Of a stretch of 64,000 nt of DNA, positions 13,771 to 60,409 are shown one piece after another. A program made the position numbers and the translations under genes. The stretch is from Candidatus Woesebacteria bacterium (GTDB lineage: Bacteria; Patescibacteriota; Microgenomatia; UBA8517), in assembly GCA_016700095.1 (NCBI GenBank), contig CP065002.1, forward strand, positions 643,667 to 707,666. The letters run 5' to 3'. Numbering within the stretch: the stretch's first letter is position 1; each line of letters begins with the position of its first letter. The notes beneath the pieces were generated by a model that was not told the origin of the DNA, searched no databases, and worked only from the letters and a program-made list of their open reading frames with translations.

Positions 13771-13845
13771 GCGGGAGTAGCTCAGTGGTAGAGCGTCTCG
13801 TTGCCAACGAGAAGGTCGCGGGTTCAATCCCCGTCTCCCGCTCCA
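13771..13845 (+). tRNA. tRNA-Gly (anticodon GCC) with genomically encoded CCA
   Basis: GCGGGAGTAGCTCAGTGGTAGAGC, anticodon loop UU-GCC-AA, T-arm GCGGGTTCAATCCCCGT. The 3' end is ...CTCCCGC-T-CCA. Confidence 0.8.
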
Positions 13846-13896
13846 TGTGACAATTAACTACGGAAATGTACACAAAGTTACTTGACAAATACAATT

Positions 13897-14307
13897 ATGA
13901 ACAAAACTGTTAGTGCGGGAGGAGTTGTTATCAATAAAAACAGTAACGTATTAGTGGTTAGTCAACAAGGAGCTTCGTGGTCTCTACCAAAAGGTCATGT
14001 TAACGAAGGTGAAGACTTTTTTGTGGCTGCAAAACGAGAAGTTGAAGAAGAATCTGGAATAAACGATTTGCAATTGGTAAAAGAACTTGGAAGTTATGAA
14101 AGACCAAGACTTGACGATCCTACAGAAATTAAGACTATCCATATGTTTTTATTTAAAACAGAACAAATGGATTTAAAACCCGTAGATCCAGAAAATCCAG
14201 AAGCCAGATGGATAAAGGTAGACGAGGTTGAACAATTGCTAACGGCAGAAAAAGACAAAGAGTTTTTTAGGAGTATTAAATTTGCATTAATCAACAAAAA
14301 TGGCTGA
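13897..14307 (+). CDS. NUDIX hydrolase
   Basis: GHVNEGEDFFVAAKREVEEESGI is a canonical Nudix box. The ORF track starts at a TTG at 13882; the ATG at 13897 is the more likely start. Confidence 0.75.
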   Translation: MNKTVSAGGVVINKNSNVLVVSQQGASWSLPKGHVNEGEDFFVAAKREVEEESGINDLQLVKELGSYERPRLDDPTEIKTIHMFLFKTEQMDLKPVDPENPEARWIKVDEVEQLLTAEKDKEFFRSIKFALINKNG

Positions 14308-14731
14308 AATTGAAGAATATATAATAGTAAGTGCTTGTTTGGCTGGAATTCCTTGCAATTACAAAGGCGAGGCTAAACCCAATTCACAGGTTGTTAATTT
14401 AGTTTCATCGGGGAAAGCTATTCCAGTTTGTCCAGAATGTTTGGGTGGATTGGCAACTCCCCGTGTAGCAGCAGAACGAAAAAATGAAAAAGTCATTACT
14501 AAAGACGGATCAGACGTTACTGCAGAATTTAGAGCTGGAGCTCAAGCTGTTTTGCAAATTGCTAGAGAAAATGGATGTAAATTAGCAATTCTTAAAGCCA
14601 GATCCCCTTCTTGTGGTAAATGTAAAATTTATGATGGGACTTTTTCTGGTAACTTAGTGGACAGAAATGGTGTTACAGCAGATTTGTTAGTGGAAAACGG
14701 AATTGAGGTAAAAACGGAAGAAGAACTTTAA
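14300..14731 (+). CDS. DUF523 family protein (2-thiouracil desulfidase-like, Cys-rich)
   Basis: IIVSACLAGIPCNYKG plus a conserved Cys pattern. Overlaps the NUDIX stop. Confidence 0.65.
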   Translation: MAEIEEYIIVSACLAGIPCNYKGEAKPNSQVVNLVSSGKAIPVCPECLGGLATPRVAAERKNEKVITKDGSDVTAEFRAGAQAVLQIARENGCKLAILKARSPSCGKCKIYDGTFSGNLVDRNGVTADLLVENGIEVKTEEEL

Positions 14732-14733
14732 AA

Positions 14734-14816
14734 TCGATCTCTGCGGCTAAGGTGGATCACAATATGTGCCATCAGCTCCCTCAAAAAGTAAGTTCGCAGC
14801 AAAAATCATTCGGTAG
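14734..14816 (+). repeat. Intergenic element A (family A/B): TCGATCTCTG...hairpin...GCTCCCTCAAAAAGTA...CATTCGGTA
   Basis: Homologous to 18090-18180. Related by its ends to the B copies at 16178 and 19428. Confidence 0.55.
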
Positions 14817-14909
14817 CTCGAGTATATCACTTGTATAAGTCTCATAACTTGGAAGATTTGATTAAGTTAGTTAGCCGTGGACGGTGTAAAATAAAGAGGC
14901 AATATTTTC

Positions 14910-15302
14910 ATGTCTGAAGTAATCACCAAACATAATGAGGTTGGTATTACTAAGGTGATTATTGGCTCAGTCATTTATTTTTTTGTACAGATATTTGCTG
15001 CATTTTTTGGCGGAGGTACTGGCATATTAATCTCTTATAACTTAATGTCCTTTTTTGGTCTTACAATTCTCGAAGTTGCCGCAACTAAAATTATTCCGTG
15101 GTTTTTTCTTTCAGTAGTTTCTTTGGTAATTTTTGCAAATAATAATTTCATTGATTACAAAATGGGCGCAGTTCTTTTTCTGGGAATGACAATTGGTGGA
15201 TACATTGGAACCCATGTCGCAATTAATAAAGGTGATATTTGGATAAAAAAATTATTTTATCTATTGGTTGCCATCACAGTTTTGAAACTACTGTTATTTT
15301 AA
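14910..15302 (+). CDS. Half-size TauE/SafE (TSUP) family membrane protein
   Basis: Four predicted TM helices with a GGGTG-type glycine motif (FFGGGTGILIS). Confidence 0.45.
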   Translation: MSEVITKHNEVGITKVIIGSVIYFFVQIFAAFFGGGTGILISYNLMSFFGLTILEVAATKIIPWFFLSVVSLVIFANNNFIDYKMGAVLFLGMTIGGYIGTHVAINKGDIWIKKLFYLLVAITVLKLLLF

Positions 15303-15343
15303 TGATCATAGATTTCAGAACCTGAAGAATTTTTACGATCCTA

Positions 15344-16204
15344 CTAAATTGAAACTTTCATCCAAATTGGATAGTGATCAGAGAGATTTCCATATTTTTC
15401 CTCAGTTAATACTTTGAATTCCTCTAATTTCACTTGGCTGTTTCCAAATGCATAATCAATCCTCAATATCGGTTCGTCGGTTGGAAGAGGAAACAATTTT
15501 GCAGGGACAGTATTTCCCTTACTTAATCCCAAATCAACAAAACCATTATTTACAAGTAATTTAGTTACTTCTCCTCTTTCCATTTCAGTAAGAGATGCTT
15601 CCATGCTTTTCATCGGGCCAGGGTATTTTTGGGCAAGTTCGTTCAGATTATTTACGGTCTCAGTTAAATCTTGCTCATCGAAAGTATTTAAATCGCCCGT
15701 AATTATGGTTGGGATATTTGGATCAACCAATTTTAAAACGGTCTGAGTTTGTTTAATCCTTGTGTCTTCACTTACATCATCAAAATAAACAGAAAATACA
15801 TCTATTCCTACAATGTGGGTTTTTATGGCATTTCTGGTTGCAAGACAAACAGTTTGAATTTCCGTTCCAGCGACTCGAGAGAAAACAGTAATGCCATTGT
15901 CATGCCCCTTTTTTATTAATCTTTGATCATTAAGTTTAACGGATTGTACGCAGGGGTATTCAAATATGTGTTTTAAATCATCTGGTGTAAAAACTTCTGT
16001 CCAACGATAGGTATCAACAAGACTAACAATGTCCGGTTTTAGTTCTTTAATGGCACGAGCCAAATTAACAATTCGCTTGGGATTTTTTTCGGTGCTTCCA
16101 TAATCGCTAAATCCACCGCTTAAAATATTCCAAGATATGATTTCTAACGACATATTATTTTGTCGATTTCTGTGTTTAAACCGAATCATAAATTGTACCA
16201 TCAA
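15344..16204 (-). CDS. Endonuclease/exonuclease/phosphatase (EEP) family protein
   Basis: ISWNILSGG...DIVSLVDTYRW and C-terminal SDHYPIWMKV. The first 17 codons lie inside repeat B1, so the real start is probably the Met at about 16153. Confidence 0.7.
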   Translation of the reverse strand: MMVQFMIRFKHRNRQNNMSLEIISWNILSGGFSDYGSTEKNPKRIVNLARAIKELKPDIVSLVDTYRWTEVFTPDDLKHIFEYPCVQSVKLNDQRLIKKGHDNGITVFSRVAGTEIQTVCLATRNAIKTHIVGIDVFSVYFDDVSEDTRIKQTQTVLKLVDPNIPTIITGDLNTFDEQDLTETVNNLNELAQKYPGPMKSMEASLTEMERGEVTKLLVNNGFVDLGLSKGNTVPAKLFPLPTDEPILRIDYAFGNSQVKLEEFKVLTEEKYGNLSDHYPIWMKVSI

Positions 16205-16272
16205 TTCTTCTTAAGTAAGCAAAGCTTAAGATAAATCAAAAGACACCTTTACCACAGAGATCATTCGGTAAT
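16178..16272 (+). repeat. Intergenic element B1 (about 95 nt, imperfect terminal inverted repeats AACCGAATCAT / ATCATTCGGTAA)
   Basis: About 95% identical to 19428-19511. Confidence 0.6.
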
Positions 16273-16306
16273 AGGATAGTAACATATTTTTAGGTCGTTA
16301 AGAAAT

Positions 16307-17221
16307 TTAAAGAAGTAGGATTACGCCTGCAACGGCGACTAGTGATCCAATGAGTTTGTTGGCGATATTGTTTCTCTCTTTGAGAAATAAAATCGCGAGC
16401 ACTACAGTAATGATAATGCTGGTGGATCTAAGGGGACCAATGACGGCGACATTCTTTCCCGTCTGATAGGCAAGGTATAGAGATAACATGCCCAAGGTAT
16501 CACAAAGGCTTAAGAGGAGAACTTTAAAAGCCCTGTCTTTGCGGAAGTAGTAACGGATTTTTTTGAGTGATTGAGGTTGGAGAAATGTGAGTGCAAATAC
16601 GGGAAGTAAATATGAATAGATTAGATAGTTGGTGGAATCAAATTTTTGCAGAATGAAATAATCATTGATATCATTGAAGCCAAAAAATATAGCTGAGAAA
16701 AGTACCAGGATAACGCCCTTATTTATGGTAAAATTCTTTTTCTCAAAGCGAGTTAACATGGCACCACATAAGATTAAAATTGCTCCTAGAACAATTTTTG
16801 GGGTAATAGCTTCATGAAGAAAAAGATTAGCTCCAATAACATTCCATAGGCGACCAGTGACAGAAAACATAACGACTTCTGAAGCCCCTATAAGTTGAAA
16901 GGCGCGATATTTAAGGAGGAAAGCTGGGGTTAGCAAAACTATAAGCAGGAGAAAATTCCAGATTAGGAGTGGCGAAAAAAACAAGTTCAATTTGTGTTGA
17001 GCAAGTGCGATGACAATAGCAATAATCCCCCCAAGCCCTAAAAAGACAATAGTCTGAGCTTGTGGACTGGAGTTTTCGTCCTTTAATAAACTGCGGTGAA
17101 GCAAGCTATTACAGGAAATAAGAAAAATGCTAATAGTCAAATAGATTTGCCAAGACATATTATTATTGTAGACTTGATTTCTTCTTTTTACCAAAGACTT
17201 CCTGAAACAAATAGAAATCAA
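16307..17221 (-). CDS. EamA/DMT-family transporter (10 TM)
   Basis: Hydropathy profile and similarity to the paralog at 24317..25168. The start is probably the internal MSWQIY, about 17158. Confidence 0.6.
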   Translation of the reverse strand: MISICFRKSLVKRRNQVYNNNMSWQIYLTISIFLISCNSLLHRSLLKDENSSPQAQTIVFLGLGGIIAIVIALAQHKLNLFFSPLLIWNFLLLIVLLTPAFLLKYRAFQLIGASEVVMFSVTGRLWNVIGANLFLHEAITPKIVLGAILILCGAMLTRFEKKNFTINKGVILVLFSAIFFGFNDINDYFILQKFDSTNYLIYSYLLPVFALTFLQPQSLKKIRYYFRKDRAFKVLLLSLCDTLGMLSLYLAYQTGKNVAVIGPLRSTSIIITVVLAILFLKERNNIANKLIGSLVAVAGVILLL

Positions 17222-17426
17222 CAGTCTTGAGATGGTTTTTAAATTCTGTCAGTTGTAAAATCAATTCTGGAGTAATGGAAGACCGTAGTATAATTTTGAC
17301 AGCAGTAGGAAACGTCATGTCAGACTGGCTTAGAAGATATGATTTGACATGGTCATCCAGGCTGGGCAGGTTCGAGCAAAGTACGGTGACCCGCTCAATA
17401 GCGAAATGATTTTGAGTTTTCTCCAA
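17163..17426 (-). CDS. Small hypothetical protein, paralog of 18188..18475 (about 55% identity)
   Basis: Shared motif VTV...L..LDD..KSYLL..SDM.F.TAVKIILR....ILQL. Confidence 0.4.
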   Translation of the reverse strand: MEKTQNHFAIERVTVLCSNLPSLDDHVKSYLLSQSDMTFPTAVKIILRSSITPELILQLTEFKNHLKTVDFYLFQEVFGKKKKSSLQ

Positions 17427-17531
17427 TTTTCCTCAAGAAATCAATCTTTTCCCGAGTTCGAGTTACTATTTTTGACGTTTTGTATTTAGCCTTGGAAAAT
17501 TTATACCGGTAACCGGAGTCGAACCTATGTT

Positions 17532-18071
17532 TTATAACGATGCAATTTGAAGTGCCGCAAGAAATCCCATGTCTTTTATTTCACCTTTGGCAATCATTTC
17601 CTTTATTTTGTCTAGACTGATTAATTCGTACTTGATGTCTTCATCAACATCTAGCGTTTGCACCCCTTTCTGTGAATCGTCGATTTTCGCCAAAGCAATA
17701 TAGGCTAACATTGAGCTAAATCCTGGTTGAGGATAGATTTTGCCGATAATCTCAACTTCTGCCGAATATCCAGTTTCTTCAGATAGCTCTCTTTTAGCCG
17801 ATTGCTCGATAGTCTCATTTTCTTCTATCCAACCCGCCGGTAGTTCGTATACAAAATCATCAACTCCCCTTCGATAATTCTTTTCAACAATGAGGTTGTT
17901 GTTCTTATCGATTGCAATAACTAATACGTAGTTTGGTCTTGAAAGATGGTAATAACCTTTTGCTTCTTTGCCATCTGGAAGTTCGTAATCATTTTCAAGT
18001 ACAGAAAGCCACTTTGATTCAAATACCAGTTTTGATTTAATTAATTTCCATTTCTTATTTGTGTCAGTCAT
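17532..18071 (-). CDS. NUDIX hydrolase (ADP-ribose pyrophosphatase-like)
   Basis: GWIEENETIEQSAKRELSEETGY Nudix box and NudF-like layout. Confidence 0.7.
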   Translation of the reverse strand: MTDTNKKWKLIKSKLVFESKWLSVLENDYELPDGKEAKGYYHLSRPNYVLVIAIDKNNNLIVEKNYRRGVDDFVYELPAGWIEENETIEQSAKRELSEETGYSAEVEIIGKIYPQPGFSSMLAYIALAKIDDSQKGVQTLDVDEDIKYELISLDKIKEMIAKGEIKDMGFLAALQIASL

Positions 18072-18089
18072 AGTTATATCTTATTAGAT

Positions 18090-18180
18090 TCGATCTCTGT
18101 AGCCAAGATGGATCATTGATATATCAATGCCAACATTCGCTCCCTTAAAAGGTACTTTCACTACAGAAACCATTCGGTAA
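18090..18180 (+). repeat. Intergenic element A' (family A/B)
   Basis: Shares TCGATCTCTG, GC.AAG.TGGATCA, GCTCCCT.AAAA.GTA and CAG...A.CATTCGGTA with element A. Its internal hairpin differs in sequence but preserves the pairing. Confidence 0.55.
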
Positions 18181-18187
18181 CCAAATA

Positions 18188-18475
18188 TTAGCATATTTTT
18201 CGATCTTTGTGACGTTTGCCGAATGCTTCAAGAAATAGAAATGGATTTATTTTCTCAAGATAGTCTTCGAATACGTTTAGTTGTAAAATAACGTCAGCTG
18301 TTACGTAATAGCGAAGAATTATTTTTACCGCTGTTGCAAATGACATATCAGAATGTTTGAGTAGATATGATTTGATATCGTCATCAAGATCAAATAGGTC
18401 CGAGCCAATTACGGTGACCAGCTCCATATGACAATTAACTACAGAAATGTACACAAAGTTACTTGACAAATACAT
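18188..18475 (-). CDS. Small hypothetical protein, paralog of 17163..17426
   Basis: See 17163. The first 17 codons lie in the duplicated 58-bp segment, so the real start may be the MELVTV Met at about 18427. Confidence 0.4.
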   Translation of the reverse strand: MYLSSNFVYISVVNCHMELVTVIGSDLFDLDDDIKSYLLKHSDMSFATAVKIILRYYVTADVILQLNVFEDYLEKINPFLFLEAFGKRHKDRKIC

Positions 18476-18478
18476 AAA

Positions 18479-19402
18479 ATGAAGAAATTGACCAAAGTAT
18501 CATTAGAAAAAGCAAAAGAATGGATTCGAAATAACGGTCGTCCTCTCGAAAAATCACTCGTAAAATTTCATTTTGCTGGCGAATCTTCTCAGGGTGTCAT
18601 AAGTGCCTTAAAGACATTTCAAAACGAAGACGGTGGTTTTGGTAATGCTATGGAGCCTGATTTGAGAACTCCCGCTAGTTCAATTTTGGGAACATCTATA
18701 GCCCTTCAGGTTTTACGATCTTTAGAAATCGAGATGGGAGATTTGGATTTCGTTAAGTCAGCGGTTCAATATATTTTGAAAAATTACAATGAGGCTGATC
18801 AGTCTTGGAGAATTATTCCGAGGAAAGCAGAAGATGCGCCACACGCTCCATGGTGGAATCAAACTGACAGAGAAGATAACTTCCATGGTTTTCATCTAAA
18901 TCCGGCAGCTGAAATACTAGGGTATTTGTATGATTACAAGGATCTTGTTCCGGCTGAAACGATATTATCACTTAGCACCAGAGTGCTTACTGAACTGAGG
19001 AATTTAAATGAGATCGAAATGCACGATTTTTTGTGTTGCAAAAGATTGTATGAATCAAAGAACTTAAATGAAACCCTTAAAAAAGAAATTGAGTTAGAGT
19101 TACTAAGACTTCTTGATTCATGCATCCTTAAAGATTTATCTAGGTGGAGTGGATACGGGTTACGACCGCTACAAGTAGTTGATTCGCCAGATTCAATATT
19201 TATTAACAAATTGGCGAAGTCGGTTGGGGAAAATCTCGATTATGAAATAGATACACAAGATAGTAGCGGAGCTTGGTTTCCAACTTGGTCGTGGGGAGAC
19301 AACTTTCAAAGCGATTGGGATCAAGCAAAAAATGAATGGACAGGGATAATCACTTTAGACAAGCTAAAATTATTGAAAATATTTGGAAGAATTGAACCAT
19401 AA
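18479..19402 (+). CDS. Hypothetical protein with prenyltransferase/terpene-cyclase-like alpha/alpha-toroid repeat
   Basis: FQNEDGGFGN resembles the Q..DGGWG repeat. Weak. Confidence 0.3.
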   Translation: MKKLTKVSLEKAKEWIRNNGRPLEKSLVKFHFAGESSQGVISALKTFQNEDGGFGNAMEPDLRTPASSILGTSIALQVLRSLEIEMGDLDFVKSAVQYILKNYNEADQSWRIIPRKAEDAPHAPWWNQTDREDNFHGFHLNPAAEILGYLYDYKDLVPAETILSLSTRVLTELRNLNEIEMHDFLCCKRLYESKNLNETLKKEIELELLRLLDSCILKDLSRWSGYGLRPLQVVDSPDSIFINKLAKSVGENLDYEIDTQDSSGAWFPTWSWGDNFQSDWDQAKNEWTGIITLDKLKLLKIFGRIEP

Positions 19403-19427
19403 AGACACCTTATGTTCAAACCGAATC

Positions 19428-19511
19428 ATAAGTTGTACCATCAATTCTTCTTAAGTAAGCAAAGCTTAAGGTAAATCAAAAGACACCTTCACCACAGAGA
19501 TCATTTGGTAA
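19428..19511 (+). repeat. Intergenic element B2
   Basis: Near-identical to B1. Lies between convergent genes. Confidence 0.6.
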
Positions 19512-19546
19512 ACTGATTATAACTTGAAAACTGTGTATTTGAAGTT

Positions 19547-22134: not shown

Positions 22135-22311
22135 GTGTTGACTCTTTAAAAAGTGACAAGTACTAACTTTGGTTTCATCAATTACAAGTTTACTATATTT
22201 GCCGCCAATAATTTAAGCTAATAACTCGTGCAATGTGACGCAATAGGCAATGACGTCTTCTACCGACAAAAGTCGTTAGTATCCGTCTTCTTTTAGGGAT
22301 TCGATCTAAAA

Positions 22312-22331
22312 CCACTGATTGAAATCAGTGG
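22312..22331. promoter_or_regulatory. 20-bp palindrome CCACTGATTGAAATCAGTGG, part of a conserved motif about 40 nt upstream of the CPBP gene
   Basis: Perfect inverted repeat. A second copy is at 25327-25344 upstream of another gene. Confidence 0.45.
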
Positions 22332-22370
22332 ATTTAGACTTAACGAGAATAAACCAGATATACTACCTGT

Positions 22371-25168: not shown

Positions 25169-25326
25169 AAGGTATTATAAACTTGATTTAATTGGTTAAA
25201 CAATCATCCTGAAATCATTAATAATAAATATGAGATGTTTATACATATTCAAATTAACATTATTTGAATAATGCCCCCTACCGACCTGGGGAGACGGTAT
25301 TTGTCTTCATGGATTCAATCCATATC

Positions 25327-25344
25327 CACTGATTAAATTCAATG
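25327..25344. promoter_or_regulatory. Second copy of the palindromic motif (CCACTGATTAAATTCAATGG)
   Basis: Same flanking context (GTCTTC..GGATTCAATC..palindrome..TTAGATTTAATGAGAATAAA) as the copy at 22312. Confidence 0.45.
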
Positions 25345-25418
25345 GTTTTAGATTTAATGAGAATAAATTTTATTAAATTGATAACCAATGACTCAAAGTA
25401 TAAAATAGAGCTATCAAT

Positions 25419-28497: not shown

Positions 28498-28569
28498 GCC
28501 CTTGTAGTTTAATGGATAGAACACTGGTCTTCGGAACCAGATATGGGGGTTCGACTCCTCCCGGGGGCA
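28498..28569 (+). tRNA. tRNA-Arg (anticodon UCG)
   Basis: GCCCTTGTAGTTTAATGGATAGAAC, anticodon loop CU-UCG-GA, T-arm GGGGGTTCGACTCCTCC, acceptor with two G-U pairs. Confidence 0.7.
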
Positions 28570-28597
28570 CACAATATATATTAAGTATATTACTTTC

Positions 28598-28860
28598 TGA
28601 TACTCGTTTTACTCGTAATAAGCATCTTGATACTCGTTTTACTCGCAATAAGAATCTTGATACTCGTTTTACTCGTAATAAGAACCTTGATACTCGTTTT
28701 ACTCGTAATAAGAACCTTGATACTCGTTTTACTCGCAATAAGCATCTTGATACTCGTTTTACTCGTAATAAGAACCTTGATACTCGTTTTACTCGTAATA
28801 AGCATCTTGATACTCGTTTTACTCGTAATAAGAACCTTGATACTCGTTTTACTCGTATTA
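28598..28860 (+). repeat. Tandem array of a 30-bp unit (TGATACTCGTTTTACTCG[T/C]AATAAG[A/C]A[A/T]C[C/T]T), 8.8 copies, no spacers
   Basis: Read directly. Units differ at 3-4 positions only. The array generates the artefactual repeat ORFs on both strands. Confidence 0.9.
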
Positions 28861-28915
28861 GAACACTGGTCTTTGCGAACCAGATATGGGGGTTTACACT
28901 CCTTCCGGGGGCACA
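28861..28915 (+). other. Degenerate copy of the 3' half of tRNA-Arg(UCG), from anticodon stem to acceptor
   Basis: GAACACTGGTCTTTGCGAACCAGATATGGGGGTTTACACTCCTTCCGGGGGCA versus the tRNA GAACACTGGTCTTCGGAACCAGATATGGGGGTTCGACTCCTCCCGGGGGCA. Confidence 0.7.
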
Positions 28916-29201
28916 ATATTTAATGATTGTTCTACCTTCTGATACGCACTTTGTTCGGGATTGGCAAGAGATAAGATACCGAGAGTAATATTTTGGGTTA
29001 AAGGTTTAAGTGAGAAAACACACTAATTATCGGTAATTAATTCACAATAAACATTTCCCCTGTCAGTTACTTGCTACTTGATTTAAATAGTATGTAAAAG
29101 ATAATATACACAATTGTTGTATACTTAAGAGTCTGGAAAAAGTGATATTCATCCCCCACTTACAGGTAGTTTAATATCGTAAAGAGGATAAGTGCTTAAT
29201 T

Positions 29202-33277: not shown

Positions 33278-33311
33278 CTAATATTAAGTTCGACTTAATA
33301 TGTATTTATTT
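33278..33311 (+). terminator. Putative intrinsic terminator: AT-rich hairpin (TAATATTAAGT-tcg-ACTTAATAT) followed by a T-tract
   Basis: Sits 60 nt after the antiporter stop. The stem is weak (AT only). Confidence 0.3.
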
Positions 33312-33408
33312 TAAGGGTGGTAGTCTTATTGACACACCTAAAAACTTATACTTTAACATTTGCGGGTAAGCTCGCCTGCAATAGGCAGTGCGTTAGTAGT
33401 TGCAGGAA

Positions 33409-33867
33409 GGTAGACACATAAGCTTGTCCGAACAAGGTGTGAGGAGGAGTGAAACGACAAATCTTGTCAAGCTTTGCTTGCAGGTGATTTGATTTTTAGA
33501 TAAATAATATGCCGTGGTGGTGGAATCGGTAGACACATAAGCTTGTCCGAACAAGGTGTGAGGAGGAGTGAAACGACAAATCTTGTCAAGCTTTGCTTGC
33601 AGGTGATTTGATTTTTAAATAAATAATATGCCGTGGTGGTGGAATCGGTAGACACGCATGCTTGTCCGAACAAGGTGTGAGGAGGAGTGAAACGACAAAT
33701 CTTGTCAAGCTTTGCTTGCAGTGATTTGATTTTTAAAATAAATAATATGCCGTGGTGGTGGAATCGGTAGACACGCAAGCTTGTCCGAACAAGGTGTGAG
33801 GAGGAGTGAAACGACAAATCTTGTCAAGCTTTGCTTGCAGGTGATTTGATTTTTAAATAAATAATAT
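33409..33867 (+). repeat. Tandem 119-bp repeat (3 full units at 33511, 33630 and 33749, plus a degenerate leading copy); each unit begins with the first 31 nt of tRNA-Leu(UAA)
   Basis: Unit: GCCGTGGTGGTGGAATCGGTAGACAC(A/G)(T/C)A(A/T)G + CTTGTCCGAACAAGGTGTGAGGAGGAGTGAAACGACAAATCTTGTCAAGCTTTGCTTGCAGGTGATTTGATTTTTAAATAAATAATAT. Units are more than 95% identical. Confidence 0.9.
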
Positions 33868-33953
33868 GCCGTGGTGGTGGAATCGGTAGACACGCAAGAC
33901 TTAAAATCTTGTGACCATTATTGGTCGTGCGGGTTCAAGTCCCGCCCTCGGCA
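33868..33953 (+). tRNA. tRNA-Leu (anticodon UAA), type II; U5:U68 mismatch in the acceptor stem
   Basis: GCCGTGGTGGTGGAATCGGTAGACACGCAAGA-CUUAAAA-TCTTG, variable stem GACCA/TGGTC, T-arm GCGGGTTCAAGTCCCGC. Confidence 0.7.
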
Positions 33954-34064
33954 CAATTTAGATGATGGCTATTAGTTTTTAGTTATCTGAAAAAGATTAG
34001 CTATTTACCTACATACACGTGTATGCGTTGAAAGCGAAGTTTGTTGGAATTTAATAATTAATAT

Positions 34065-55425: not shown

Positions 55426-55616
55426 AAGTTTATCACCCTACTTTATCACCCTACAGGTGAAATGAATTAACACAGCTCACTTTTTAGAATTAGTACGGTA
55501 ACTTAGAGTTAGTTGCCATCGGACGTTCATATATAGATATACCTTAAACTTACAGAATGCTTATTAAGAACAGTCCCAAGTATATAGCACATCACTAAAA
55601 TCTAGTTTTTGAAGAT

Positions 55617-56363
55617 TTACTGGTTTAATAAAAAGTTTGCTACTCCCACATCCCCCCACATTATTTCAGCAATATTTTGCTTTGGATAATACTCACTGTC
55701 CATTTGAAACAATAAGGTAGAATAATCTGTGAATTTATCATTGCCTCTGGGATCATCTTGAGTGAAATTGGGATAACCTCCTATTTTATGACCGGTTGGA
55801 TCAGAAAATTTAAGATATGTTTTAACTAACTCACTGTAAAAATCATCAAAAGCTTTGTCGTAATTAATTTCACTTTCATATCGAAAATCAACATAGGGAA
55901 TAGATGCGATACTTCTCTTGAATGTTAAAGAAAACTCATTTTCTAATACAAAGGTTTCTTTTGGGGTAGGCCAATCATAATCTAAAATCGGATTTGTATT
56001 AATGAATTGTTCTTTTGAAATATACAAGACCCTGAAATTATCTTGTTTTGTTCTGTTGGCAAAATCCAAACCCCTTAAATTGTTATCAGATATAAACATT
56101 TGTAGAATCCCTGTTTCCGGAAAATCAGCAAGTTTTGGTACTTCTTCAAAATTTATCTGAGCCAAAAATATCAACTTTTGACCTGCGGCATTTTTGGGGT
56201 ACTCAACTTCATCTATTAGCAATGGCTTACCCCCAAATTTGCTTTGAGTTGGAGATAACTCCTCGGAGACAGCTTGACTTTTAATAGCAATATATTCCTT
56301 AAAAGTTTTATTAATTCTATCTTCGTATTGTTTTAATATATTGGGTAATTCAGGTAAATCCAT
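55617..56363 (-). CDS. DUF1963 (YwqG-like) domain protein
   Basis: KFGGKP....LIFLAQINFEE....ETGILQMF ... GHKIGGYPNFTQDDP. Confidence 0.6.
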   Translation of the reverse strand: MDLPELPNILKQYEDRINKTFKEYIAIKSQAVSEELSPTQSKFGGKPLLIDEVEYPKNAAGQKLIFLAQINFEEVPKLADFPETGILQMFISDNNLRGLDFANRTKQDNFRVLYISKEQFINTNPILDYDWPTPKETFVLENEFSLTFKRSIASIPYVDFRYESEINYDKAFDDFYSELVKTYLKFSDPTGHKIGGYPNFTQDDPRGNDKFTDYSTLLFQMDSEYYPKQNIAEIMWGDVGVANFLLNQ

Positions 56364-56592
56364 GTTTAAATATTAACAATATATTAATATTACTACGAAC
56401 ATTTATTAAAAAGAATACTTGGAGTAACAAGGTATATATCTAATATGGATTATATCACCCTACAGGTGAAATGAATTAATACAGCTCACTTTTAAGAATT
56501 AATACAGTAACTTAGGATCAGCTACCATCGGACATTCGAACATGGATATACCTTAATCCTACAGAAAGCTTTATAAGAACAGTCACAAAATG

Positions 56593-57141
56593 GTTTATCA
56601 CCCTACAGGTGAAATGAATTAACACAGCTCACTTTTTAGAATTAGTACGGTAACTTAGAGTTAGTTGCCATCGGACGTTCATATATAGATATACCTTAAA
56701 CTTACAGAATGCTTATTAAGAACAGTCCCAAGTATATAGCACATCACTAAAATCTAGTTTTTGAAGATTTACTGGTTTAATAAAAAAGTTTGCTACTCCC
56801 ACATCCCCCCACATTATTTCAGCAATATTTTGCTTTGGATAATACTCACTGTCCATTTGAAACAATAAGGTAGAATAATCTGTGAATTTATCATTGCCTC
56901 TGGGATCATCTTGAGTGAAATTGGGATAACCTCCTATTTTATGACCGGTTGGATCAGAAAATTTAAGATATGTTTTAACTAACTCACTGTAAAAATCATC
57001 AAAAGCTTTGTCGTAATTAATTTCACTTTCATATCGAAAATCAACATAGGGAATAGATGCGATACTTCTCTTGAATGTTAAAGAAAACTCATTTTCTAAT
57101 ACGAAGGTTTCTTTTGGGGTAGGCCAATCATAATCTAAAAT
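56593..57141 (+). repeat. About 550-bp segmental duplication of 55428-55988 (repeat core plus tRNA-like module plus the 3' 372 bp of the DUF1963 gene)
   Basis: More than 98% identical. One 13-nt and one 1-nt indel. Confidence 0.85.
56770..57141 (-). pseudogene. Truncated duplicate (C-terminal about 120 codons) of the DUF1963 gene, carrying a 1-nt insertion in a poly-A run
   Basis: Copy of 55617-55988. It lacks its 5' two-thirds and promoter. An A8-to-A9 frameshift lies near the 3' end. Confidence 0.7.
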
Positions 57142-57386
57142 AAATCCTCAACAAAATTAATCAAATTCTTTAATTGAAGAATTAATCTATTTATCCATAT
57201 CCTTTGTGTGAAGATTAGCTTATATTCACCACTTACCACAAAAGACAATCTTTACCTCTCTCGAGTTTATAATATTATCCCCCAATAAAAGCGTTAATAG
57301 TCATATCAATACAAAATGTCTTATTGATATTTTGCTTGGTAAGCTTGGAATTCCTATAAAGTAAAAAACCTGTCATTTTTTTTAGT

Positions 57387-57959
57387 TTGCTATATAATAT
57401 GTTTATGGTAGAAAAAGAGGCAAATTATTATGGCGATCCCGTTAACGACTTTGAATTAAGAATAGTTCAAAAGCCAAAAGAAGAAAAAGGGCAAACTTAT
57501 GATAATGGCATTCAAGGTGAAACTGACGGCTTGTTAGATGTTGTCAGAAAAATTGTTCCAGAAGATGTTTTAGTTAAAATGGGTGGGCAAATCACAACAG
57601 TTTCTCTGGGCGGGACATTTAGTGAGAAAAGTATCGTCTTACCAAACACACCTCTCGTGCGCGATCCCGAGAAAGATGCGAGATCTCATGGAGGCGGAGC
57701 TAGTCCTGGAATGGGTGGTATGCGAACAGAACAAACGTTTTATCACGATGGAACTCAGGTAGATACAGTTGCCCCAGAGGCTCCCAAAAAGAGTAGACTT
57801 TCTGGTTTATTTGGTCGGGGTACTAAAACACCTCCGAAAAGATTGGTAAATGGTGCGCGAAACATAGTATCAGTAACCATTGGAAGCGACGATGAAATAA
57901 AAGATTTTAAAGTTAATAATATCGTCGTATACGAATATATTGATACCCCCGATCAGTAA
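57387..57959 (+). CDS. Hypothetical protein (Gly-rich central region)
   Basis: ORF only. Confidence 0.35.
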   Translation: MLYNMFMVEKEANYYGDPVNDFELRIVQKPKEEKGQTYDNGIQGETDGLLDVVRKIVPEDVLVKMGGQITTVSLGGTFSEKSIVLPNTPLVRDPEKDARSHGGGASPGMGGMRTEQTFYHDGTQVDTVAPEAPKKSRLSGLFGRGTKTPPKRLVNGARNIVSVTIGSDDEIKDFKVNNIVVYEYIDTPDQ

Positions 57960-57976
57960 TTTGCTATAATCTCCAC

Positions 57977-58183
57977 ATGTGTGAAGCAAAACTAAGATAT
58001 TCCCAACGTTTAACAAATGAGGAAAAACTAGCAATACAGACTTGTCCTGGATTTATTTCAGCCCAAAACAGATCATTGGCGGATTATTATGAACCCAAAA
58101 GATGTGCAGATTGTAATTTAACTTCGACATTCACACCTTCCATTAATCAAATTAAAATTGAGGGAAAGTGTCCAAAAAAATAA
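57977..58183 (+). CDS. Small Cys-containing hypothetical protein
   Basis: 68 aa, 5 Cys. Confidence 0.3.
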   Translation: MCEAKLRYSQRLTNEEKLAIQTCPGFISAQNRSLADYYEPKRCADCNLTSTFTPSINQIKIEGKCPKK

Positions 58184-58607
58184 ATAGTTTTCTATATCTT
58201 ATTAAACTTCATCACAATTAATCTGCAATTAATATAAACTGAAACAAAGTTAGCAAAACGCTATTATTTCACTATTCCAGGGGAAATATCTCAAATTTCA
58301 CTAGTTCTCCATTAACGTAGGTGCAATGATACTGATGAGAACTTTTGTTATCAACCATATGAAGTAGGAAATGGAGAATGTTCTCGACCACTGCACTATT
58401 ATTCCTGTCCACCGTCCACTCAAGTGGTTTCCACTTTAAAATGCCCTCTCTTATTTCCCTACTTACAAAAGGTTTATCACCCTACAGGAGATTATCACCC
58501 TACAGGTGAAATGAATTAACACAGCTCACTTTTAAGTGAAATACATTATCACCCTACAGGTGAAATGAATTAACACAGCTCACTTTTAAGAATTAATACG
58601 GTAACTT

Positions 58608-58640
58608 AGAGTGGATGGCTGGACGACGTTCGAACCTATT
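58608..58640 (+). other. Degenerate partial copy of the tRNA-His 3' end (T-arm plus acceptor region), following repeat copy 58547
   Basis: GTGGATGGCTGGACGACGTTCGAACC versus the authentic GGTGGCTGACGAGTCTCGAACCCGCG at 60335. Confidence 0.55.
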
Positions 58641-58761
58641 TCGTGCCTATTTCAGTAGATTATCAGGTGATTAAAAGCATGTTATTACTTCAAGAAAAAG
58701 CTCAGTTTACCAATGTTTGACTGAACAGTAGAGTGCGAATTTCCTTCAGGCTAGAAAACAT

Positions 58762-59340
58762 TTAATCTGCAAAAACAGGGGTAATTTCAAAATTCACAGT
58801 CTTTATTCGCTGGTCAAGTTTTATAACTTTCAATTCATCTACAAATTCAATTACTGGTGCAGATGTTTCTTTTTCTAGAGATTTTTCGAGTTCCTCATTA
58901 TTGTAAAAACGGACAGATAATGATAAATCGTAATCACTACCAAGTTTCAAACTGTTTGGCCAAGGCTCCACAAATCTATACTTATAAACTCTTTTGCTAT
59001 TTGTCTCAGTTTCCAACCACACGCAATTATCTTGTCCTTTCTTGCATAATTCACTGCTTTGAATTCCAATGGCATCTTCACTGTCGTCATGTTTGGAAGT
59101 GGTTATACTTATGTTGTCATGCACTTGGTCACTATTTATCTGTTTATATATTATTGTTACTTCACCTTCAATAACATTGGAATTTTCATCTTCATCAATA
59201 ATGGAGTCTTTACTAATATCCTTCTTAGAAGGATTCTGTTTATTGTTGTTTGAAAAAAATGTTACTCCAACCCCAATCGCAACTATCATAGTTATTAAAA
59301 ACAAAAATAATGGTAATGCAAATCCTTTTTCATCTTTCAT
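58762..59340 (-). CDS. Hypothetical secreted or membrane-anchored protein
   Basis: N-terminal TM/signal. Acidic. Confidence 0.4.
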   Translation of the reverse strand: MKDEKGFALPLFLFLITMIVAIGVGVTFFSNNNKQNPSKKDISKDSIIDEDENSNVIEGEVTIIYKQINSDQVHDNISITTSKHDDSEDAIGIQSSELCKKGQDNCVWLETETNSKRVYKYRFVEPWPNSLKLGSDYDLSLSVRFYNNEELEKSLEKETSAPVIEFVDELKVIKLDQRIKTVNFEITPVFAD

Positions 59341-59465
59341 GTATTAATGTTAATATTTACTTATTCAATATGCAAATACTAAGATGAGCAACTCGAACTA
59401 ATTATAACGGATATGACAAAGCTTTATGAAGTATTTGGCAGGAAAATGGCATATAATTATTCATT

Positions 59466-60071
59466 ATGAATATCAATCAAAAAGTAAAGGCAGGCTACAA
59501 CATTGCCGCTAAAAACTATACTTCAGAATTTCGAGACCAATTCAAAAATGAAAAACATCTAGCTAAGTTGGTAGATGTTTTGTCTCCAAGATCAAGCATT
59601 CTTGATGTTGGCTGTGGAGCCGGTAAACCAATTGATAGCTATCTTGTTTCAAAAGGTATGAAAGTAACAGGTATCGATATTTCTGAAGCCCAAATAGAGT
59701 TGGCAAAATCATATGTACCAGAAGCTAATTACGAAGTCCGTGACATGTCTGAGCTACAAGATGGTGAATATGAAGTAGATGCCGTTGTTTCTTTTTACGC
59801 CATTTTTCACACCCCAAGAGAGAACCATGCTGACTTACTGAAGAAGTTCAAGTCTTTTCTGAAATCAGATGGATACTTGCTTATTACGATGGGAGCTAAT
59901 GATTGGGTAGGCAAAGAAGATAATTTCTGTGGATCAGAAATGTATTGGAGTCATTACGGTGCAGATAAAAATAAGGAGCTGATTGAAAAAGCAGGGTTTG
60001 ACATCATTTTCTCTGAGGTCGATGATGCAGGCGGAGAAAAACATTTGATTATATTAGCCAAAGCTAAGTAG
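59466..60071 (+). CDS. Class I SAM-dependent methyltransferase
   Basis: ILDVGCGAGKPI (motif I) and an acidic-residue motif II. Confidence 0.7.
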   Translation: MNINQKVKAGYNIAAKNYTSEFRDQFKNEKHLAKLVDVLSPRSSILDVGCGAGKPIDSYLVSKGMKVTGIDISEAQIELAKSYVPEANYEVRDMSELQDGEYEVDAVVSFYAIFHTPRENHADLLKKFKSFLKSDGYLLITMGANDWVGKEDNFCGSEMYWSHYGADKNKELIEKAGFDIIFSEVDDAGGEKHLIILAKAK

Positions 60072-60334
60072 GAATAGTTTCTATTTGGGGTCGGTTGCCA
60101 TCGGATGTTAGTATATCACCCTACAGGTGAAATGAATTAACACAGCTCACTTTTTAGAATTAGTACGGTAACTTAGGATCAGCTACCATCGGACATTCGA
60201 ACATGGATATACCTTAATCCTACAGAAAGCTTTATGAGAACAGTCACAAAATGGATTTATTGAAAAAAGATTATCACCCTACAGGTGAAATGAATTAACA
60301 CAGCTCACTTTTAAGAATTAATACAGTAACTTAG

Positions 60335-60409
<75 letters not shown>

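Follow-up and report, generated by a model that had tools for sequence, protein, structure and literature searches.

What are the four short, related sequences that lie between genes in one small region of a Candidatus Woesebacteria genome, and what might they do there? The region belongs to a 64,000-nt stretch of contig CP065002.1 (positions 643,667 to 707,666 of the forward strand), hereafter called the window and numbered from its first letter. An initial annotation had described the sequences, named A, A', B1 and B2, as 85-95-nt elements that could be a structured RNA or a miniature inverted-repeat transposable element (MITE). By comparing them with copies from other genomes, we came to consider it rather probable that the element is a portable promoter-leader module on the minus strand, placed ahead of assorted and mostly accessory genes. 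According to this model, a sigma-70-type extended -10 promoter (TGnTAWAMT) would initiate transcription at the A of ACCGAAUG, and the first ~85 nt of the transcript would fold into a three-way junction made of a closing stem (P1), a hairpin with a variable tip (P2) and a second hairpin (P3). The 3' strand of P1 would stop 1-30 nt short of the next start codon, and the commonest spacer, CCCUUCGGGGUAUU-AUG, would contribute a Shine-Dalgarno-like GGGG. The module would in this way give diverse genes a transcription start, a 5' leader and a translation start.

Four copies of one family lie within 5 kb

We could confirm that the four elements of the window form one family and all have the same orientation, as annotated, except that the start of B2 had been placed 10 nt too far to the right (19428 instead of 19418). 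With the promoter-like box included, the copies are as follows.

14733..14829, minus strand: copy A, with an extended -10 box at 14821-14829 (TGATATACT on the minus strand), a predicted start at 14814 and a fold reaching down to ~14734.
16164..16284, minus strand: copy B1, with an extended -10 box at 16276-16284 (TGTTACTAT) and a predicted start at 16269.
18089..18193, minus strand: copy A', with an extended -10 box at 18185-18193 (TGCTAATAT) and a predicted start at 18178.
19418..19524, minus strand: copy B2, with a -10 box TATAAT at 19516-19521 that lacks the TG, and a predicted start at 19509.

B1 (16178-16272) and B2 (19418-19511) are 94.7% identical (90/95), close to the 95% first estimated, whereas A (14734-14816) and A' (18090-18180) are 72.5% identical overall and do contain the common blocks that had been listed for them. 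The nhmmer E-values of the individual copies, from 1e-22 to 1e-26, indicate that this resemblance is not due to chance. With the same kind of profile no fifth copy was found in the window: the four lie within 5 kb, and the remaining 59 kb have none. Although the B copies came out reversed in a first MAFFT alignment, because the closing stem is palindromic, both are matched on the plus strand by a profile from which they had been left out (E = 2.7e-7 and 4.4e-5). This profile also revealed that B1 retains a diverged 5' part and truly starts at ~16164.

All copies have the same ends, GATCTCTG... and ...CAGAGATCATTCGGT. The motif GATCTCTG, expected 0.95 times in the window, is present there five times, four of them inside the elements. 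The tail thought to be common to all four copies, CATTCGGTA, is exact in A, A' and B1, while B2 has the variant CATTTGGTA. As had been noticed, the B copies carry imperfect terminal inverted repeats, ACCGAATCAT and ATCATTCGGT, complementary at 9 of 10 positions. They arise where the P2 strand meant for CCAUC is replaced by the complement of the 5' end of the transcript, and they are a lineage-specific change rather than a feature of the family. All four copies are intergenic once the gene of the endonuclease/exonuclease/phosphatase (EEP) family next to B1 begins at its ATG (16153) and not at an upstream TTG, from which the open reading frame (ORF) runs 17 codons into B1, as first reported; in the protein read from the ATG (15344-16153), the Pfam domain begins at residue 6.

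The family is found in other Microgenomates-type contigs

Two DNA-pattern scans yielded 22 copies and three more were reached independently through a protein gene described below, which gives, with the four of the window, a total of 29 copies. After removal of duplicates, 26 distinct copies were retrieved by the element itself (the four of the window included), and 25 distinct copies overall lie beyond the window. A degenerate pattern, searched in 185,579 species genomes, gave 13 matches where we estimate that about nine are expected by chance; six are evidently homologous, with ~90% identity over 81 nt and flanks that are unrelated. In these 185,579 genomes, the strict pattern had a single match in each of six. 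Contigs with a homologue are titled Candidatus Gottesmanbacteria, Woesebacteria, Amesbacteria or Microgenomates group, and two further metagenome-assembled genomes of low GC content carry the label 'uncultured Gammaproteobacteria'. The second scan, on metagenome contigs, returned 21 loci, several of them from 0.1-um groundwater fractions. All the added copies come from contigs of the Candidate Phyla Radiation (CPR)/Microgenomates type, and the element remains ~90% identical between Gottesmanbacteria, Woesebacteria, Amesbacteria and Microgenomates contigs while the flanks differ. In the viral contigs, phage records and plasmid records that we scanned, no true copy was found, and the window itself is cellular, with genes for ATP synthase, dihydroorotate dehydrogenase and transporters together with 14 tRNA genes. 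Rather than standing alone, the four sequences of the window therefore belong to a family with 25 further distinct copies and a covarying structure, described below.

Is the family a MITE, that is, a non-autonomous transposable element with terminal inverted repeats, as had been considered? Its small size, its presence in several genomes, an 11-bp inverted repeat near the ends and the extra 10-bp repeat at the very ends of the B copies would fit. However, the 11-bp repeat, GATCTCTGTGG/CCACAGAGATC, corresponds to P1 and lies inside the conserved unit, which continues beyond it with the tail and the -10 box. The clustering of the four window copies in 5 kb, the remaining 59 kb being free of them, single matches in six genomes by the strict pattern and a constant kind of tRNA-linked neighborhood are also at odds with a MITE. 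Moreover, no target-site duplication was visible in alignments of copies with their flanks, where the promoter-side boundary is too blurred for a strict comparison, and no related transposase was seen among the neighbors. The Correia (CREE/NEMIS) repeats of Neisseria are a useful comparison: they are small, have inverted-repeat ends, are co-transcribed with their neighbors, form RNA hairpins and can carry promoter elements, and they are dispersed in hundreds of copies, with 26-bp terminal repeats and duplicated TA targets. In contrast, our element has few and clustered copies, no duplication that we could see and an inverted repeat inside the unit. We therefore give a MITE very little chance.

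The copies share a covarying three-stem fold

The initial annotation had also pointed to a covarying hairpin. A conserved, covarying structure is indeed there, and the hairpin turned out to be only one of its three stems. The copies have in common a fold, covering the first ~85 nt of the predicted transcript, in which P1, of 11-12 bp (GAUCUCUGUGG/CCACAGAGAUC on the predicted RNA), encloses the hairpins P2 and P3. P2 is the hairpin first noticed, GATGG-AT-CAC...GTG-CCATC, with a tip of variable length: the different hairpins of A and A', CACAATATGTG and CATTGATATATCAATG, occupy equivalent positions and are the distal part of this one conserved stem. P3 is a short hairpin, YCU-N7-AGR, which reads CCCU-AAAA-AGGG in the A-type copies.

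First, in an alignment fitted to the model, 93.3% of the cells can pair and eight pairs show changes on both sides. Second, RNAalifold applied to an unfitted MAFFT alignment of the minus strand recovered P1, P2 and P3 at -24.2 kcal/mol, with 95.5% of the cells paired and changes on both sides in nine pairs (22 cells); since the copies are related, the number of independent events behind these covariation figures is smaller than the number of cells counted. Third, none of 500 shuffles of the unfitted alignment attained the observed values on four of five measures, and slid controls reached only 29-51% of paired cells. The alignments themselves thus establish both the family and its covarying fold. 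The element is also non-coding, because its insertions and deletions are not multiples of three, which rules out a small ORF through the element in the plus-strand frame AISVAKMDHLRAISS.

The fold has no counterpart in Rfam. Only tRNAs scored above the gathering threshold of Rfam 15 in the window, in a search that took in hammerhead, twister, pistol and hatchet ribozymes as well as riboswitches; nothing in Rfam overlapped the elements on either strand at E up to 10, nor six related loci at E up to 0.1, and no description of the element was found in a literature search. A hammerhead-like CUGAUG motif was rejected on the layout of the junction and on the lack of an Rfam match. An additional pairing ('P0') of the 5' tail with the spacer UUCGG is possible in ~10 copies; variants of the tail are uncompensated and we do not claim it.

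A promoter-like box points to the minus strand

On the minus strand the tail reads ACCGAAUG, the reverse complement of the CATTCGGT at which the elements were first thought to end. Just past this end, all copies carry a box with the consensus TGnTAWAMT. Numbering the A of ACCGAAUG as the predicted +1, T-15 is found in 26/29 copies, G-14 in 29/29, T-12 in 27/29, A-11 in 29/29 and T-7 in 29/29, the positions between them being variable. Six variable nucleotides separate the box from ACCGAAUG, a spacing that is constant in all copies. The pattern TGnTAnnnT occurs at this offset in 24 of the 29 copies and at none of 1479 other offsets of the same flanks, and an independent consensus scan likewise reported the B2 site. 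A conserved T-12, A-11 and T-7 placed ~7 nt before the start is what is expected of a sigma-70 extended -10 element. The conserved unit is consequently larger than the 85-95 nt first delimited, as it includes the box past the CATTCGGTA end and, often, a few ribosome-binding nucleotides that lead to a start codon.

We compared these observations with what a structured RNA of the plus strand, for instance a 3'-UTR element or the leader of the gene to the right, would predict. A co-oriented gene lies 30-95 nt to the right of ~17 of 26 copies, and some G.U pairs, such as GGUGG/CCAUC in copy A, fit the plus strand only. However, the reverse complement of the same alignment folds at only -4.8 kcal/mol, against -24.2 kcal/mol for the minus strand, and 19 of 25 single sequences are more stable on the minus strand. 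Furthermore, there is no conserved plus-strand promoter, the flanks to the left of the element being unrelated, and the conserved box to the right has the form of a -10 element only when the other strand is read. A plus-strand RNA has in our opinion a slim chance. Together, the promoter box, the downstream genes and the fold energy indicate that the functional strand is probably the minus strand, opposite to that of the initial annotation.

The fold precedes unrelated genes

In 20 of the 29 copies, an ATG-initiated ORF begins 1-30 nt after P1 on the minus strand, that is, a conserved and covarying structure lies directly upstream of a co-directional gene, as a cis-acting leader should. These ORFs are all at least 100 aa long except one of 71 aa, which is cut by the end of its locus. 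They are mutually unrelated and include NUDIX, EEP and DUF5677 genes as well as several unknown proteins. The spacer CCCUUCGGGGUAUU-AUG, with its Shine-Dalgarno-like GGGG, is the commonest and is found ahead of at least four unrelated genes. In the window, two copies lead a gene.

15344..16153, minus strand: EEP gene, led by B1.
17532..18071, minus strand: NUDIX gene, led by A'.

A' has three stems with a long P2 hairpin, and the NUDIX start codon (18071) is 17 nt beyond its fold. B1 is divergent, as its P2 is disrupted, it has a 21-nt insertion and its 5' end pairs with an internal AUGAUUCGGU; its closing stem extends on the 3' side to ~16164 and the EEP start codon comes next, at 16153. Copy A has a weakened closing stem and no gene after it on the minus strand, and faces the 3' end of the gene at 14300-14731 (2-thiouracil desulfurase). 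B2 is a truncated B-type element without the 3' strand of the closing stem. It faces the end of a 307-aa gene (18479-19402) and, because no gene follows it, is probably a relic.

We infer that transcription starts at the A of ACCGAAUG and that the fold acts on the downstream gene. It could affect the stability of the transcript or access to the start codon, or serve as a binding site for the product of the neighboring gene X presented below. Three-way-junction leaders and riboswitch aptamers have a similar design, with a promoter-proximal junction, covarying stems, conserved junction nucleotides, a variable tip and a closing stem by the start codon. Unlike known riboswitch leaders, the element has no Rfam match, its downstream genes do not share a pathway, and we identified neither a terminator after the fold nor a clear sequestering helix. 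An AUG at +6 is invariant (18173-18171 and 16264-16262 on the minus strand in the window) and in 28/29 copies begins an ORF of 8-29 codons that spans the 5' strand of P1. A leader-peptide attenuator or coding upstream ORF was nevertheless rejected, the variable sites being distributed 7/8/7 by codon position, with no coding signature.

The same promoter and fold might instead produce a stand-alone small RNA of ~85-100 nt, also from the minus strand, which would act in trans or, as an antisense RNA, on the 3' end of a convergently oriented gene. The fold is compact and self-contained, and seven copies have the box and no co-directional gene and face the 3' end of a convergent gene (A that of 14300-14731 and B2 that of 18479-19402). 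Against this, there is no terminator past the fold, a start codon lies within 30 nt in 20/29 copies, the common spacer resembles a ribosome-binding site, and the copies without a gene include the most degenerate ones (A and B2). A stand-alone small RNA is thus unlikely, although it deserves to be kept in mind, and we retain the promoter-leader module as the more probable reading.

A small protein gene frequently lies upstream of the element

A feature absent from the initial annotation is the link between the element and a small conserved protein gene, X, which has two paralogues in the window (48% identical). The genes concerned are the following.

17163..17426, minus strand: X17, a small conserved protein of 87 aa from a TTG start, upstream of the EamA gene and B1 on the same strand.
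18188..18427, minus strand: X18, a paralogue of X17 of 79 aa, whose stop codon is in the -10 box of A' (an 'empty' arrangement).
16307..17158, minus strand: EamA-family transporter gene, co-oriented with X17 and B1 and filling the variable slot that separates them.
13771..13845, plus strand: tRNA-Gly(GCC), bordering the variable region in which the four copies lie.

X was seen as a 215-nt block, 88-93% identical between the window and several loci and lying on the RNA strand of the element. A second non-coding end or a tRNA-like RNA were considered for this block and overturned by a codon-position test: the three codon positions have 18/14/38 variable sites, the synonymous share reaches 0.61 in its own frame and at most 0.42 in the other five, the indels are in frame and 20 of 21 copies are open. 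The homologues of X fall into 48 clusters without a name, of which one comes from a Woesebacteria genome, and the family appears to be restricted to CPR contigs. No Pfam, PADLOC or PHROG family matched X, and its AlphaFold model (five helices, pLDDT 73) had no fold match in the PDB.

Along the RNA strand, X comes first and is separated from the promoter and element by zero, one or two unrelated genes, which may point either way; the led gene comes last. The minus strand of the window illustrates this arrangement, with a 242-aa gene and B2, then X18, A' and NUDIX, then X17, EamA, B1 and EEP; locus L043 has the same layout as X17, EamA and B1. In the 'empty' loci (X18/A' in the window, L022, L023 and L037) the -10 box includes the stop codon of X. 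X is upstream in 19 of 26 copies retrieved by the element, and the element is present in three of six loci retrieved by X.

The most frequent filler of the slot is a protein of ~240 aa with HNH_repeat and MUG113/T5orf172 (GIY-YIG-like) domains and a conserved leader of its own. The domains were assigned by Pfam in L022 and L032, and L024 and L030 were included on the basis of the same or a similar N-terminal sequence.

L022 1322-2044, L024 1822-2544, L030 8715-9440 and L032 1083-1817: nuclease-like filler of ~240 aa, in the slot between X and the element.

This filler may be a free-standing gene of the homing-endonuclease type. Other slot genes encode GNAT acetyltransferases, an RHH protein with an ABC1 kinase, an Rce1-like protease, an HXXEE protein and a Bro-N protein.

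Such a slot raises the question of whether the element acts as DNA, either as a recombination or homing site that folds as a single strand, like an attC site or an IS200/IS605 end, or together with X as the flanks of a gene slot, possibly driven by the GIY-YIG-like nucleases. Copies of one region are co-oriented and separate variable genes, the slots are empty (A'/X18, L022, L023 and L037) or filled by unrelated genes in either orientation, the commonest filler has nuclease domains, element and X are ~90% identical across differently named lineages, and the covariation is also compatible with a DNA hairpin. However, the Pfam census of 118 neighboring proteins, of which the 25 most frequent families were listed, contained no recurrent integrase, transposase or HUH enzyme beside the copies, a single large serine recombinase being present among these proteins. 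Similarly, no tyrosine recombinase recurred among the 25 most frequent families of the 118 neighboring or of the 52 window proteins; one XerC-like gene lies 5.5 kb from the element in L044. Besides, a -10 box at fixed spacing and adjacent start codons would remain unexplained. In integrons, attC arrays consist of co-oriented hairpin elements between variable, often promoterless accessory genes. Our element resembles them in being co-oriented, hairpin-forming and placed between variable genes, and differs in that no IntI is found nearby among the families listed, no RYYYAAC/GTTRRRY core sites are present, loops and junctions are conserved in sequence and not only in structure, and a promoter-like box is carried. 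Hence, we regard a DNA site as improbable.

An extension of the promoter-leader module would make the fold a CPR-specific riboregulator and X its RNA- or promoter-binding partner, the two forming a portable unit that travels with horizontally acquired genes of the tRNA-linked region and switches them on or off, with the slot as a preferred landing or exchange site. Any such role of X would be conjectural, and we hold this extension to be doubtful.

The modules sit in a variable region of CPR/Microgenomates genomes linked to tRNA-Gly and tRNA-Thr. The loci adjoin tRNA-Gly(CCC) and/or tRNA-Thr(CGT), and the window copies adjoin tRNA-Gly(GCC). One locus has an additional system in this region.

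L037 10542-12414: EcoRI-type restriction-modification pair, downstream of a partial element copy and X, between tRNA-Thr and tRNA-Gly.

Two repeats of the window touch these tRNA neighborhoods. The 48 nt that follow tRNA-Gly(GCC) (13846-13893) recur at 18427-18474, between the X18 start and the 307-aa gene, the similarity extending to 57 nt at 95% or 69 nt at 88% identity; the common GCTCCAT is the end of the tRNA at the first site and the reverse of the X18 start codon at the second. In addition, ~130 nt at 17400-17530 are homologous to a stretch downstream of tRNA-Gly(CCC) in other Microgenomates contigs and end in a piece resembling the 3' half of a tRNA on the minus strand, where no tRNA was called.

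Points for and against a promoter-leader module

A class of putative mobile promoters has been delimited as 50-100-nt upstream sequences with at least 80% identity, located before non-homologous genes within a genome and across genera (PMC3488235; Matus-Garcia, Nijveen and van Passel 2012). By the definition given there, our element belongs to this class, since its sequence keeps ~90% identity from one Microgenomates lineage to another and the genes behind it are unrelated. Whereas the class, so defined, is set by similarity alone, the element adds a covarying fold, a fixed predicted start and a partner gene, X.

Several observations weigh against a promoter-leader module. First, the start site and the strand are predictions made from sequence, and to our knowledge promoter usage in CPR bacteria has not been characterised experimentally. 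The wobble count, too, only leans to the minus strand, with 28 G.U-fitting cells against 17 for the plus strand, these cells not being independent. Second, seven copies have no minus-strand gene downstream (A, B2, L025, L032a, L022b, L023 and L030b), and in L037 the next gene, 176 nt past the element, is the restriction-modification pair. Third, the led genes have no shared function from which a regulatory logic or a class of ligand could be read. Fourth, many copies are closely related, so that independent compensatory events are few, and covariation cannot separate the folding of RNA from that of single-stranded DNA. Finally, the link with X is frequent without being obligatory. Still, a promoter-like box at fixed spacing and the gene arrangement are established from the aligned loci, and the promoter-leader module remains the reading that we favor.

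Other repeats in the window

The window contains further repeats. A second family, with six to eight copies of a 48-93-nt unit (TATCACCCTACAGGTGAAATGAATTAACACAGCTCACTTTT...), is located at 55436-60356, where a 300-nt stretch is also perfectly duplicated (55630-55929 and 56783-57082) and the last copy of the unit adjoins tRNA-His (60334-60408). At 28498-28922, ten 30-nt tandem repeats start from the 3' end of tRNA-Arg(TCG) and are followed by a second copy of this 3' end (28889-28922); the overlying ORF (28512-28988) is probably spurious. Five to six 119-nt tandem repeats at 33290-34003 run into tRNA-Leu(TAA) (33868-33954), and a 45-nt inverted repeat (78% complementary; 22299-22343 and 25314-25358) brackets ~3 kb.

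Significance for CPR bacteria

Very little is known of the promoters, leaders and non-coding RNAs of CPR bacteria, which are ultra-small and cannot be grown alone. The family offers for them a concrete candidate promoter, with a textbook extended -10 element and a fixed predicted start, and a covarying fold of ~85 nt common to contigs named Woese-, Gottesman- and Amesbacteria. It also presents a case of regulatory DNA that is reused before unrelated accessory genes in a tRNA-linked variable region and is tied to the uncharacterised gene X. If promoter and fold work as predicted, the element would be a new candidate motif for Rfam and a horizontally spread expression module, and possibly an expression part for these organisms.

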